Origin: Candidatus Margulisiibacteriota bacterium
Lineage (GTDB): Bacteria; Margulisbacteria; WOR-1; O2-12-FULL-45-9
DNA: 53,943 nucleotides
Direction of reading: 5' to 3'
NCBI GenBank assembly: GCA_034723395.1
Contig: JAYEOW010000003.1
Location: 1-53,943, forward strand
Position numbers and translations under genes: made by a program. Positions 8,902 to 14,869 of the stretch are shown one piece after another (position 1 is the stretch's first letter; every line of letters starts with the position of its first letter). The notes below the pieces were generated by a model. The model was not told where the DNA came from and did not search any database. It was given only the letters and a program-made list of their open reading frames with translations.

Positions 8902-8933
8902 TAAACGAATAATACTTTATTTAGCATTTTGAC

Positions 8934-8961
8934 GCAAGTTTTACGCCATTTATTGCGATAT
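8934..8961 (+). promoter_or_regulatory. Sigma-28-like promoter, copy 1
   Basis: GCAAGTTT-N12-TGCGATAT; same motif and spacing upstream of the next two genes. Confidence 0.65.
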
Positions 8962-9007
8962 ATCTATAGTAGAACTATATTATGTATAGTTAGGCTTAGG
9001 TACTATT

Positions 9008-11314
9008 ATGGCAGAAGGTTTATTAACACCAAGAATAGCTTATAAAATTTATAGAAGATACAATCTCTTAAGGGATAGCCTTACCTTCTTGAGAAATAGA
9101 CTAAAGATAAAGCCAGATAGAACTAAATTAGAAAACAGGCTTCTGCGGCAACTAGAAAATCTTCCAAAATATACATATCAACAATTGCGCGAATTAGACA
9201 AAACAACACTCGAAAAATTATTAAACAAAGTAGATGCCCTCAAAGAGACATTACATGATTATCAAAGCCGCGGTAAGCGGTCGATCAACCGGCAAAAGCT
9301 AACCGAAGCCTTCGAAAATCTTTCCCGCCTATCGCGCACCATCGATAAAATTTGCCGGAAAAAACCTTTATTTAAACCATACCGAAAACCCCACTACAAT
9401 CTTAGAGCCCATCAACAACACAATGGAGTGCTTAGAAATCAATTTTTCATGAAAAGAGGACGTAATCCCGGCCATAAATCGCACTCTCTGCACATACGAA
9501 TACCTATTCAAGTTATCAAAAACAAAGTTAAAACCTCAAGATCTGAGGTCGAACATATTACAAAACCTGTCGCGGAAAAATCTAGAATAGAAGCTGCAGG
9601 CACAATTCTGCAAATACTTAGCCGGCTGCTTATTGCCCTCTCCTTAAAAAGGGCGCTACCCTCTCTTAAAGCAAAAAAAGGCAAAAAAGCGGTGCGCAGT
9701 GAGATTGAAAAAGCGTTAAAAGAATTAAACTCTAATTCCACTCTCACAAGATTTGCTGCAAATACAAAAGTCCAGGCCCAGCCGCAAAGTAGAAAAGAAG
9801 CTAAAGGGAAGGCAAAGGCCACTCTCTCTATTGAATCTCAAAAGTCATCGGGATCTGGAAAAATTATCTATAAAACTATTCTTGACGGAAAAGGGAATAT
9901 CATCGGCATTGAAATTGTCGGAAAAATAGAAAAGCCTGTTGAAACAGCCAGGAATGCGGTAAACCGGGCTCCCGCCAAAATGATCCCTATTCTAACCGAA
10001 GCGTCAGTCGAAGCAGTAAGGAATGATCCTAATGCAACCTTTAAGGTCCTCGATTTTGTATCTAAAACCCTTAGCAAAGCCGATCCTACTACTCGAGTCC
10101 CGGTTAAATTATCCGCCCCCCACGCGATGGAGGTTATTTTAGGGGAAGTCGTCCATACCCTGCTTACCATGCCCGAATCATCCCTGGGGATTTCAAACAA
10201 GCATCTTACCGCGCAAACGAAACAGGGGATCGTCGCCGATGTACTAGCGCGGTATCCAGGCGCCGCCCTCCCGGTCCTGTTGAGTGAATACAACCGGGTC
10301 CCGGCAACAGGAAAACAGGTTCTAGAAAATCTTAGCCTAAAGATCGCTCAGACCAAACCGGTCCAGGAGCAGATCGTCCAGGCATTAGGCAATGGATCCG
10401 CCGCCCAGGTCATCACCTCAACCAAGCTGGGAAAAAACGTAGTTGTCCAAACTGCTAATAACCTGATCAGGCAGGCAAAAGGATCAAAAACGATATTAGG
10501 CAGAATCGTCTCTTCGGTTGTACTGGAAAATTCAGCAAAGTTATCAGCCAAGGGAATGACCTTTGAAACCGCCCGTGATTTTATTACGATGGTTTCAAAC
10601 TTGAGGGAATATCGCAATCTGGCAAAGAGCCGGAATCCTAAGGCCAGAGCTAATAACAAAAAGATCGACTATTTCGCCAGGGCCAGTTATGCCCGCAATT
10701 TAAAAGCTAAACGAAAACCAAAACCGCAATTCAGCGTAAAAGAAGCAAGAAGGTTAGAAACATTAGCAAGACGGATCGATCAGATTGCCAGGACTTCGAA
10801 CCTGATCATTCCCAAGCCGCTGCATAATCGGGTTAGAGAACATGCTGCGGGAGTGGCCAACGTTACCCGGCCCGCCCCGGTCCAAAACGCGCCAATCTCA
10901 GGCAGCCATCTGCAACCGGAGCATTCGGCGACCAGAAGTATGGAAAGTATTGTAAATGCGCTTGAGGTCGAAAAGGCAAGATTAGGTCCGGTAGAAGCGA
11001 TAAAATCGGCAACTGAGTCAACGGCTAAGACGGTAATAAGTGGAAACAAGATCCTTGCCTCCATCCTCGAACGCCTGGTCAGGGATCCGAGTTCAACCGA
11101 TGGCGAAATCAGAGCAAAAGTTGCTGAATATGTTAAAGAGCTGAAAAAATCAAAGCTGCGCTACAATGAGGTAATTGCCGCCCTCGAAGGGGTCGACCCT
11201 CAAGGGGCCGAAGCAACTGTCCCTATATATGATGTAGATGCCCTGCTTAGATTTAAGAGAGATAGAAAGCAGGATAACCGGGCTGAGCGCGAAGAGGCCG
11301 AAATTGTTGCATAA
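9008..11314 (+). CDS. Large basic orphan protein (768 aa)
   Basis: Uninterrupted 2.3 kb ORF, K/R-rich, no signal peptide or recognisable family. Confidence 0.85.
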   Translation: MAEGLLTPRIAYKIYRRYNLLRDSLTFLRNRLKIKPDRTKLENRLLRQLENLPKYTYQQLRELDKTTLEKLLNKVDALKETLHDYQSRGKRSINRQKLTEAFENLSRLSRTIDKICRKKPLFKPYRKPHYNLRAHQQHNGVLRNQFFMKRGRNPGHKSHSLHIRIPIQVIKNKVKTSRSEVEHITKPVAEKSRIEAAGTILQILSRLLIALSLKRALPSLKAKKGKKAVRSEIEKALKELNSNSTLTRFAANTKVQAQPQSRKEAKGKAKATLSIESQKSSGSGKIIYKTILDGKGNIIGIEIVGKIEKPVETARNAVNRAPAKMIPILTEASVEAVRNDPNATFKVLDFVSKTLSKADPTTRVPVKLSAPHAMEVILGEVVHTLLTMPESSLGISNKHLTAQTKQGIVADVLARYPGAALPVLLSEYNRVPATGKQVLENLSLKIAQTKPVQEQIVQALGNGSAAQVITSTKLGKNVVVQTANNLIRQAKGSKTILGRIVSSVVLENSAKLSAKGMTFETARDFITMVSNLREYRNLAKSRNPKARANNKKIDYFARASYARNLKAKRKPKPQFSVKEARRLETLARRIDQIARTSNLIIPKPLHNRVREHAAGVANVTRPAPVQNAPISGSHLQPEHSATRSMESIVNALEVEKARLGPVEAIKSATESTAKTVISGNKILASILERLVRDPSSTDGEIRAKVAEYVKELKKSKLRYNEVIAALEGVDPQGAEATVPIYDVDALLRFKRDRKQDNRAEREEAEIVA

Positions 11315-14300: not shown

Positions 14301-14823
14301 TAAATTATGGGCAAGTATGGATCGCGGCACTTCATATCGCCTCCGTTCCGGATATAAGTATGTCAGAAACGCTTTCCGAAAAATTGGCGGACGCATACCT
14401 AAAAAAGTCAGTGGTATAACATTGATGCAGCCCAATGGTCAACCAAGGGGCGATATAACAAATTCTGGCCAATTAGAATCTGTTCTCTTAACCAGTGTCG
14501 GAAATAGCTCAGATATTAAAAAATTCAAAAATGAGATCGTTGCTCGCGTAAAGGCTTTTAACAGTCGCAGAGGGAACCAGACTCCCCCTGCCGGAAATCC
14601 CCCTAGGCCAAATACACCTGCACCTAGACGAACTACTCCTAAGCGGACCACTCCTAGACGCCCTTCAGTCAGACCTGCTGCCAGACGCCCTGCAGTTAAA
14701 CCTGCCGAGAAGACTACAACAGATAAGACTACAACTACACCTACACCTACACCTACAACTACAACTACACCTACAACTACAACTACAACTACACCTACGG
14801 AAGCCGACACTACGGACTTCTAA
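11365..14823 (+). CDS. Large orphan protein (1152 aa) with Ca-binding-like loop and Pro/Thr-rich tail
   Basis: DANGDGRADAGE motif; TPR-like helices; C-terminal PRRTTPKRTTPRR and PTPTPTTTTTPTTTTTTTP. Confidence 0.88.
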   Translation: MTTQQTINPKLIWGVNGEAGTNWRRDGLSAAVSLSDKYGIKVYLTDDRSKHYLQDRNDGKGHKYSRRYAYRPYDRAISSLGEGNITNREMATTIKELHAALSNNALGYDLTKIIALLKRKGLTLKQIKGLKGLTGKQLIAKLLTILGENPVEYTVAFGTAAKKLTLAIKAYKDAPNATNAKGVKDKLAVLKQLLGNSTQNLAKPFITAGTQTLQIEADRLGKLIRKTEAARKAAIAKRTGFIKYIATSTLPLQTLLGIIKYTDRYIRSNYSANEVQAYLKHPDVKRAIGQSALKYIISNPTGVKAADVKALETYIFPHLKQDQRIITFKYEGKTYVAVTEKKKNKWVFISKGIPNNYRPIGETKILIKRSAWGSDLLARDHRVTAKAVMDGRKPPEFTVRVNDMNGQRDLKIVVRDANGDGRADAGEKIFVKLPNGELREIKGRLREIIDQYMKTRGQGDKVITRAELRYFLRVVRKYAQFAGLSMTEAVGDYLREGQNFEDRNIDQGIKGRSQISNSVRAAMKKGKIETLTPSNLKPLLTELGYHADIIAEVVRLANTNSKLTVKFITDCLVRVVISASLQRAYRGVRYVNREYVGDFAPARMIAWLKGAAQTQRSTTGNKVTLSPQELRKLRGQIETEVFDSDVIDGNQSRQKALDLIGRLARAGKVAAARAAFKIIQEIANRRIKESEMRDEKHKLYSLTKPSFSADYQAQLAEGYLAAGDYTTAYQVALQAGPQQRNKLMEQIVKRGINNPRHYDLVLKILTHKTNSQFTFNFEQNDRLRYLEQLAQKYLDTTDKQAVRAKALVALMAIKSVVGTAKHKITIPGERGQQQIGITEYIKKVKRDIALPIRIVQIRYRVLPNGSYQAGKAIAALRDLQAIINNQGTLLFTLACTYKLKARILEAQGKLQWPGQLPSKLTSYPAFKKYVEAAQAALRAFYLFEYLKGKSSPNSDKYDQYSSFASESISVSAQIIMDRHKLWASMDRGTSYRLRSGYKYVRNAFRKIGGRIPKKVSGITLMQPNGQPRGDITNSGQLESVLLTSVGNSSDIKKFKNEIVARVKAFNSRRGNQTPPAGNPPRPNTPAPRRTTPKRTTPRRPSVRPAARRPAVKPAEKTTTDKTTTTPTPTPTTTTTPTTTTTTTPTEADTTDF

Positions 14824-14841
14824 AAAAAACCGCATTTTCAT

Positions 14842-14869
14842 GCAAGTTTTACCCTATTTAATTCGATAA
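14842..14869 (+). promoter_or_regulatory. Sigma-28-like promoter, copy 3
   Basis: GCAAGTTT-N12-TTCGATAA; gcattttcatgcaagttttac matches copy 1 at 19 of 21 positions. Confidence 0.65.

Follow-up and report, generated by a model that had tools for sequence, protein, structure and literature searches.

Three long genes in a 53,943-nucleotide (nt) stretch of DNA from a Candidatus Margulisiibacteriota bacterium (assembly GCA_034723395.1, contig JAYEOW010000003.1; this whole stretch is called the window below) are each preceded by an exact copy of the bipartite motif GCAAGTTT-N12-TNCGATA. We infer that this motif class, named M1, is a promoter class read by a FliA/WhiG-type (sigma-28 family) alternative sigma factor, most likely the 246-amino-acid (aa) factor sigmaA, whose gene lies inside a flagellar basal-body operon; we give this reading a probability of about 0.6. 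The analysed genome (label G000) comprises 1.68 Mb in 55 contigs and is 97% complete, with the window as its contig C3. It was compared with 146 genomes of the phylum, of which 65 belong to the same class (WOR-1/Saganbacteria, according to named records) and 81 do not, and with its 40-41 nearest relatives. Compared genomes are labelled Gnnn, contigs Cn, loci Lnnn and families by f-numbers, and a sister class of M1 is named M2.

Geometry and conservation of M1

Exact copies of M1 occupy window positions 8934-8960, 11321-11347 and 14842-14868 on the forward strand, with the identical spacing reported in the first-pass annotation of this DNA. With up to two mismatches the window contains six matches (three of them exact) where 0.61 are expected, and none of 100 shuffled sequences reaches six. 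The strict pattern occurs 11 times across the whole genome and the shorter form CAAGTTT-N14-CGATA 23 times; 21 of these 23 sites lie outside long open reading frames (ORFs) and 19 have a co-directional ORF within -25 to 150 nt downstream. Spacing is rigid, with 23 sites at N14 and 0-2 at every other spacing between N10 and N18. Allowing one mismatch gives 16 hits compared to one in a reversed control and adds a few intergenic sites. A weight matrix seeded with 22 intergenic CAAGTTT-N14-CGATA sites finds 24 genomic sites at or above 18 bits, with bimodal scores, and no site at or above 14 bits in a Markov-shuffled genome.

M1 has the consensus (c/a)ATGCAAGTTTT-N13-CGATA(a/t), or in fuller form (c/a)ATGCAAGTTTT..cC...tta.(t/c)(a/c)CGATA(a/t). 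CGATA is invariant among the 22 seed sites; next come A or T, A/T-rich sequence and a ribosome-binding site of the GAGG type. Distances from M1 to the ORF are 7-124 nt for nearly all sites and 7-48 nt at most of them. A further shared element, gcatttt(g/c)a(c/t), had been described upstream of copies 1 and 3; it is present at both but does not generalize, since across the M1 sites only A-T immediately before GCAAG is conserved.

Conservation extends well beyond the genome in hand. CAAGTTT-N14-CGATA occurs in 41 of 41 nearest relatives, and M1 is found in all 65 class genomes with 3-24 exact copies each, compared to 0-2 in the reversed control. The 81 other genomes of the phylum mostly have 0-4 copies, and families f48-f50 have 3-9. 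In G013, which belongs to the same family, and G031, which does not, each of the 23 sites examined has an ORF 10-121 nt downstream; several of these ORFs are orthologues of M1 targets in G000 at 22-52% identity. Divergent orthologues that retain M1 occur in G013, G031, G010 and G004, and include a 259-aa protein (C11), a 96-aa protein (C44), a 93-aa protein with its operon (C19), a giant and a 533-aa protein (both C16), and a FliK-like gene. Because such orthologous targets are only 22-52% identical, the signal has been kept while the proteins diverged. Enrichment upstream of genes, on which the first-pass annotation had made its promoter hypothesis depend, is strong both genome-wide and class-wide.

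M1 resembles sigma-28 (FliA/SigD/WhiG) promoters, for which the consensus TAAAGTTT-N11-GCCGATAA quoted earlier agrees with the literature. Both have two rigidly spaced boxes, and M1 shares with them AAGTTT and CGATA(A), the -10 core in which the A at -11 is flipped. M1 differs in that its -35 box begins with GC rather than TA and extends upstream (ATGC), and in that it has no extended -10 GC, its positions -15/-14 being T/C and A/C. The distance between boxes exceeds the canonical one by one base if AAGTTT is aligned and equals it if CAAG is aligned with TAAA. M1 most likely works like a sigma-28 promoter, as a divergent member of that kind. Canonical TAAA-N15-GCCGATAA was searched for in G000 and is not enriched. 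One lone canonical-looking site, TAAAG-N15-GCCGATAA, lies at C49:8098-8126 with a 420-aa ORF 47 nt downstream. The primary sigma factor of this genome appears conventional because 21 exact TTGACA-N16-18-TATAAT sites occur, including before 16S rRNA and the flgF operon. The hrcA promoter, which had been set against M1 as a TTGACA/TATAAT example, is indeed of that type: TTGACA-N18-TATAAT lies at 31274 together with a CIRCE-like inverted repeat before hrcA (PF01628, 113.7 bits).

Sigma factors and the sister class M2

Six sigma-70-family genes are present in G000, and the FliA/WhiG-type factor that the first-pass annotation called for exists in two FliA-like versions, sigmaA and sigmaB. The sigmaA gene sits inside flgI-flgJ-like-sigmaA-flgB, a location within a flagellar cluster that recalls sigma-28 systems, as do its best matches. 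Its best NCBIfam match is FliA_WhiG (TIGR02479, 135.6 bits), and the solved proteins that match it best are WhiG and FliA, over the full length (residues 20-244). All 19 named WOR-1/Saganbacteria/Margulisiibacteriota loci keep the order flgI-flgJ-like-sigmaA-flgB-flgC. Of the 65 class genomes, 58 have an orthologue with 57-81% identity, and the best match outside the class reaches at most 38%; this class-restricted orthology parallels the class-restricted enrichment of M1.

Residues at the predicted DNA interface follow the same direction. The Pseudomonas aeruginosa fliC promoter reads TCTAAAG ... GCCGATAA, and in the sigma-28 open complex R97 recognizes the extended -10 GC, and the upstream portion of the -35 box is recognized by S224 and Q228 (PMC12784957 for both). 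HMMER alignments place Tyr95, Pro226 and Arg230 of sigmaA at the positions of R97, S224 and Q228, so sigmaA is unlike P. aeruginosa FliA at all three. M1 has no extended -10 GC, and it is exactly the upstream portion of its box that departs from the canonical one. In sigmaB, Ser is kept at the S224 position and Arg stands at the Gln position.

The second factor, sigmaB (196 aa), resembles FliA in regions 2 and 4 and lacks region 3. Every one of 41 relatives has it, as do 64 of the 65 class genomes; identity outside the class is 30-39%. In most genomes its gene lies directly after flhA, behind a conserved 111-aa gene. This 111-aa protein (G000 C46:1380-1712, L032; after flhA in relatives at L130-L133) is always encoded upstream of sigmaB and co-transcribed with it, matches no family, and is a candidate anti-sigma factor or partner of sigmaB. 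The region-4.2 helix of sigmaB is of the SESQVSRIYK type and nearly invariant in 11 aligned genomes across the phylum. The corresponding sigmaA-type helix reads LSRPKVCRV in G000 and SKSK(V/I)SR(L/I)H outside the class. A helix of sigmaA that differs inside and outside the class matches the restriction of M1, and the invariance of the sigmaB helix matches the distribution of M2.

M2 was found by a dyad search of upstream regions and reads (g/c)TGAAATTT-N14-CGATA. Exact TGAAA-N17-CGATA occurs 68 times in G000, 57 times outside long ORFs and 51 times near a co-directional start, and its spacing is also rigid (63 sites at the main spacing compared to 0-4 at others). M2 shares with M1 the CGATA -10 box, the spacing, an A/T-rich discriminator, the Shine-Dalgarno layout and the lineage. 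The two differ in the -35 box (GCAAGTTT in M1, TGAAATTT in M2), in number, with 2-3 times more M2 sites in G000, in the phylum-wide occurrence of M2, and in their targets. Upstream of M2 the sequence is A-rich, and its positions -16 and -15 are often T and G, respectively. Among -35 pentamers taken at the fixed distance from CGATA, TGAAA is found 57 times and GCAAG 20 times, with two each of the hybrids TCAAG and GGAAA; the hybrids TGAAG and GCAAA are not among the 25 commonest pentamers listed. The bimodal pentamers therefore indicate two specificities. M2 is present in 141 of 146 phylum genomes. Class genomes have 9-189 copies each, and genomes elsewhere in the phylum often have 10-69.

Targets of M2 comprise 52 candidate first genes; of the 40 scanned, 24 have no Pfam family, and the others include Ser/Thr kinases, HATPase proteins, HD, GH16, GH116, CheR and RelA/SpoT-domain proteins. 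The rpoD gene is preceded by an M2 site 19 nt upstream (C29:80539). At six loci of the 111-aa/sigmaB operon, M2 lies directly before it as an exact match in three and as a -10 variant in two (one flagged by script, one seen by eye), and is lacking in one. Such a placement fits autoregulation of a small sigma factor with a co-transcribed partner. In two places, M2 and M1 stand in tandem about 60 nt apart before the same gene (C54:6400-6487, sites at 6426/6487; C37:1668-1754, sites at 1694/1754), an arrangement that suggests dual sigma control. M2 promoter and gene start are the same at contig ends C2:1-260 and C44:1-260, except that one copy has ATA for ATG; this is a repeated gene at assembly breaks. 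One further M2 copy lies in the window itself at 53061-53087 on the forward strand, 65 nt before an ORF at 53152 that has no Pfam family.

Promoters of extracytoplasmic function (ECF, group 4) sigma factors have a -35 'AAC' and a -10 'CGT' about 16-17 nt apart. M1 and M2 are similar in that 17 nt separate the AA core from CG, and sigmaB is ECF-like in having no region 3 and a co-transcribed small protein. Unlike ECF promoters, M1 has AAG and M2 has AAT in place of AAC, both have CGATA in place of CGT(c/a), and both sigma factors score best on FliA.

Assignment of M1 to a sigma factor

With two FliA-like sigma factors in the genome and a sister class that has the same CGATA -10 box, the reader of M1 can only be inferred. 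M2 precedes the sigmaB operon and occurs phylum-wide like the sigmaB helix; for these reasons M2 is assigned to sigmaB and M1 to sigmaA, a pairing that is probably correct. Two other genomes, G044 and G070 (62-66% complete), contain sigmaB and 16 and 44 M2 copies, and have neither M1 nor a convincing sigmaA.

Under this pairing, the housekeeping sigma factor would produce the basal body together with sigmaA. RNA polymerase carrying sigmaA would then contact GCAAGTTT / ATGCAAGTTT through region 4 and CGATA through region 2, with no extended -10 contacts, and would start transcription about 9 nt past the last A of CGATA. Besides the fliK-like/flgE-like/fliMNOPQR/flhBA export operon, its predicted targets would number about 24 units, which mostly encode lineage-specific, fast-evolving proteins without a signal peptide and include the three window genes. 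Leaders would be very short or absent because start codons lie 7-48 nt from most sites; gene 3 of the window, at 124 nt, would be the exception.

Several observations weigh against a sigma-28-type promoter read by sigmaA. With AAGTTT aligned, M1 spacing exceeds the canonical value by one base, M1 has no extended -10 GC, and the FliA_WhiG score of sigmaA (135.6 bits) is below the NCBIfam cut-off of 189.6. A search for the FlgM family in G000 gave no match. No sigmaA match was obtained in seven of 65 class genomes, six of which hold 6-17 M1 copies, and one of these cases, G143, is 95% complete with 14 M1 copies. Among five such genomes tested, FlgI is missing in three and the contig ends right after flgI in two, so that these cases neither tell against the assignment nor exonerate it. 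Families f48-f50 hold 3-9 M1-like copies together with the sigmaA-like helix of the outside-class type. In addition, the assignment of both factors draws on exclusion and on co-distribution among related genomes that are not independent of each other.

The reverse pairing, in which sigmaB reads M1 and sigmaA reads M2, is rather unlikely, and would give a cascade from sigma70 to sigmaA, from sigmaA through M2 to the sigmaB operon, and from sigmaB through M1 to the export operon and the orphans. Broad conservation of sigmaB favours it, as do the FliA matches of sigmaB in regions 2 and 4 and the T at -16 and G at -15 of M2, which resemble an extended -10 element and would suit a sigmaA that has region 3. 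The location of sigmaB downstream of the M1-driven flhA operon in relatives also fits sigmaB reading M1, because read-through would give positive feedback. Yet the sigmaB helix is nearly invariant across a phylum in which most outside families have M1 near background (0-4 copies) and M2 enriched, and G044 and G070, incomplete as they are, combine sigmaB and M2 with neither M1 nor a convincing sigmaA. The M2 site directly before the sigmaB operon is what common autoregulation of small sigma/anti-sigma pairs would produce.

It is quite improbable that M1 is instead the operator of a regulator, or a primary-sigma promoter that depends on activator binding at ATGCAAGTTTT. In favour, the upstream box has 11 well-conserved bases, more than is usual for a -35 element. 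But the motif shows no dyad symmetry, and it is bipartite with a rigid 14-nt spacing, strictly oriented to the gene and followed directly by a Shine-Dalgarno sequence and start codon. Its second box is the sigma-28 core CGATA, after which T at -7 is not conserved, whereas the primary sigma factor evidently uses TTGACA/TATAAT (21 exact sites). A third sigma factor also lies close to M1 sites: the strain-specific, RpoS/RpoH-like 222-aa C31 sigma is encoded downstream of an M1-driven 952-aa orphan and is followed by another M1 site (whole locus G000 C31:15548-20211; L019 7549-12209). An autoregulated island read by this factor is scarcely credible as the source of the motif, given that M1 is present in all 65 class genomes and an orthologue in 0 of 40 relatives. 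As a general reader of M1 the C31 factor was rejected, since in those relatives only region 2 of a primary sigma of about 350-370 aa matches, at 42-47%. Its locus may be an acquired island that uses the promoter code of its host. Assignment of M1 to sigmaA remains the preferred reading.

Predicted M1 targets and a flagellar apparatus without flagellin

Genes directly downstream of M1 are mostly orphans. No Pfam family is found at E<=0.001 in 19 of 23 first genes, and one further site lies at a contig end with no gene. Four genes are exceptions: hisS, at a distance of 264 nt; a gene for a nucleotidyltransferase; one for a Ser/Thr kinase, at the weakest site; and one for a 426-aa FliK-like protein with a sub-threshold FliK match (24.2 bits), which is followed by a stand-alone FlhB-C-terminal-like protein (74 bits). 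Large M1-driven products have 768, 1152, 3665, 1838, 1911 and 952 aa; they are mostly without Pfam families and signal peptides, and are basic and rich in Ala, Leu, Lys and Arg. BLASTP among these six shows no paralogy beyond one weak 27% stretch. Products of at least 700 aa account for seven of 24 M1 first genes compared to 92 of 1446 genes genome-wide (by crude ORF calls), and a signal-peptide-like N-terminus for three of 24 compared to 359 of 1446 (by a crude hydrophobicity rule).

Flagellar genes of G000 are arranged in two main operons. The basal-body operon (C55:175-10786) has the order flgF-flgG-flgA-flgH-flgI-flgJ-like-sigmaA-flgB-flgC-fliE-fliF-fliG-fliH-fliI-fliJ, is preceded by TTGACA-N17-TATAAT, and includes a 100-aa FlgJ-like rod-binding protein and a short FliG (154 aa) with N and middle-domain matches only. 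The export operon (C46:20458-28960) has the order fliK-like-(FlgE/F/G-D1-like, 271 aa)-fliM-fliN-fliO-fliP-fliQ-fliR-flhB-flhA. The M1 variant GCAAGTTT-N14-CGATT (C46:28978) lies 18 nt upstream of the operon start, the orthologous operon of G013 has an exact M1 upstream, and in G010 and G004 an M1 site occupies the corresponding position. Flagellar structural genes are thus preceded by M1, or by the form ending in CGATT, both in this operon and in the FliK-like/FlhB-C-terminal-like pair. Axial proteins in G000 number four, all of rod type. Flagellin, hook, FlgK/L, FliD, FlgM, the FliG C-domain and MotB were not detected in G000; Flagellin_N, Flagellin_C, FlgM, FliG_C and MotB_plug gave no match over cut-off in this 97% complete genome. 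M1 first genes, 19 of 23 of which have no Pfam family, likewise include no match to flagellin, FlgM, FliG_C or MotB_plug as classical class-III targets. The proposal of a divergent sigma-28-type regulon that drives orphan giants rather than flagellin is supported with qualifications: the targets are mostly orphans, several are giant, and no flagellin was found, but giant orphans are joined in the regulon by many small proteins and by the fliK-like...flhA export operon.

FlhA is present in 135 of 146 phylum genomes and flagellin in 15. Among these 15, 13 belong to families f44-f47, and 12 of the 13 have a second FlhA (the remaining one is G098). Flagellated cousins in the phylum have canonical sigma-28 boxes, TAAAG-N~15-CCGAnAAT, before flagellin genes. 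At f45-f46 flagellin loci (L043, L044, L047, L048, L053, L055, L057, L059 and L065), a conserved GGTCCGC(C/A/T)TGTCGG(G/A) lies about 100-150 nt upstream of one set of flagellin paralogues and replaces the sigma-28 boxes of the other set. Within the class, the sole flagellin-N match, in G019 (L038, C4:62177-62932), was rejected as flagellin; it is a 251-aa signal-peptide protein encoded outside any flagellar cluster without M1 upstream. Its gene adjoins an ATPase-like gene.

The three window genes illustrate the regulon at close range; their predicted transcription start sites (TSSs) follow the sigma-28 geometry (-15)GCCGATAA(-8) given in PMC12784957. All features that follow are on the forward strand. 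Promoter P1 (8934-8960, exact match, 38.7 bits with the genome matrix) has the -35-like GCAAGTTT, a 14-nt gap to CGATA and a predicted TSS near 8969, and lies 48 nt before gene 1 (9008..11314). Gene 1 encodes a basic, Leu/Lys/Ala-rich protein of 768 aa with no Pfam family and no signal peptide. A Protein Atlas search with the 768-aa product gave no usable hit; the Atlas record of this product begins at residue 28, which implies an alternative start near 9089. P2 (11321-11347, 33.9 bits) lies 18 nt before the ATG of gene 2, with a predicted TSS near 11356 and an AAGAGG Shine-Dalgarno sequence at the predicted 5' end of the transcript. Gene 2 (11365..14823) encodes a fast-evolving 1152-aa protein without a Pfam family, and ACN/CCT repeats at its 3' end (14700-14823) give a Thr/Pro-rich, low-complexity C-terminal tail. 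It has partial matches only, at 23-38% identity in eight of 40 relatives, and no usable Protein Atlas neighbour; these results, together with the lack of a usable neighbour for the 768-aa protein, make the label 'orphan, fast-evolving' fair. The motif is retained just upstream of gene 2 homologues in G010 (C66) and G004 (C103).

P3 (14842-14868, 40.3 bits, predicted TSS near 14877) lies 124 nt before gene 3 (14992..25989), which encodes 3665 aa with no Pfam family and no signal peptide. The N-terminus of this product, MNPPGAVNSV, is similar to MNPPNVNNV of the M1-driven 1838-aa protein on C16. Between P3 and gene 3, a terminator- or attenuator-like hairpin, CCACG...CGTGG followed by T7-G-T4 (14929-14965), is seen in the sequence and in the centroid fold. 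A terminator scan did not flag it because its loop exceeds 8 nt, and the whole-leader fold is not significant (z-score -1.07). Its role may be that of an attenuator, or a short RNA may end there; neither has statistical support. A 13-codon mini-ORF (ATG at 14926) overlaps the hairpin. Rfam finds nine tRNAs in the whole window, and nothing at the promoters or in the gene 3 leader.

Reuse of FliA-type sigma factors outside flagella has precedents. The sigma-28 of Chlamydia is one. WhiG of Streptomyces is another sigma-28-family factor with a role outside flagella (PMC8325347 and bioRxiv 10.64898/2026.01.14.699351). The regulon of sigmaA would be similar to those of both factors in having no flagellin. 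Unlike both, the factor considered here is still tied, physically and in its regulation, to a flagellar-type basal body and export apparatus, and two paralogous FliA-derived sigma factors occur with sister promoters. Compared to sigma-28 regulons in general, M1 targets include no flagellin, hook-associated, motor or chemotaxis genes, are mostly orphans, and are accompanied by no detectable FlgM. Flagellar structures without filaments are also known. Lysobacter enzymogenes OH11 has a flagellar type III system without flagellin, for which FliI-dependent secretion of non-flagellar proteins has been shown (PMC7688988), and Buchnera aphidicola keeps basal bodies without a filament (PMC8109811). The apparatus described here is similar in lacking flagellin while having export gate, ATPase, rod and rings. 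It differs in extending across most of a phylum and in its putative dedicated sigma regulon. In the literature, supplements excluded, we found no description of M1 or M2 promoters, the two sigma factors or a flagellin-less apparatus in Margulisbacteria/Saganbacteria. PMC6349859 has zero mentions of flagell/motil/sigma/secretion, PMC6784892 has none of flagell, and PMC11607428 merely lists Margulisbacteria among clades with FlgV homologues.

A tentative wider reading is that a filament-less flagellum derivative has been kept as an export machine, with sigmaA as its late-gene switch and the M1 regulon as its substrates. Its scope would be Saganbacteria (WOR-1) and probably most Margulisiibacteriota. 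Such a machine would be non-rotating, with rod, L/P rings, MS ring, C-ring parts, export gate and ATPase, and without flagellin, hook, FliG torque domain and MotB. Its substrates would be fast-evolving proteins of up to 3665 aa with polar, signal-peptide-less N-termini, and could be secreted effectors, adhesins or surface fibres. It would be a free-living, phylum-wide analogue of a flagellum-injectisome intermediate with its own sigma code.

In this uncultured phylum, the sister group of Cyanobacteria, these findings outline a transcriptional code of three promoter classes: canonical sigma-70, M2 and M1. M1 can be used to fix gene starts and operon boundaries in these metagenome-assembled genomes. 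About 25 'dark-matter' genes, giants included, are joined by M1 in one putative regulon tied to a flagellin-less apparatus, which is the strongest available clue to their function. The purpose of a flagellar export machine without a filament is a question that now becomes approachable beyond Buchnera and Lysobacter.

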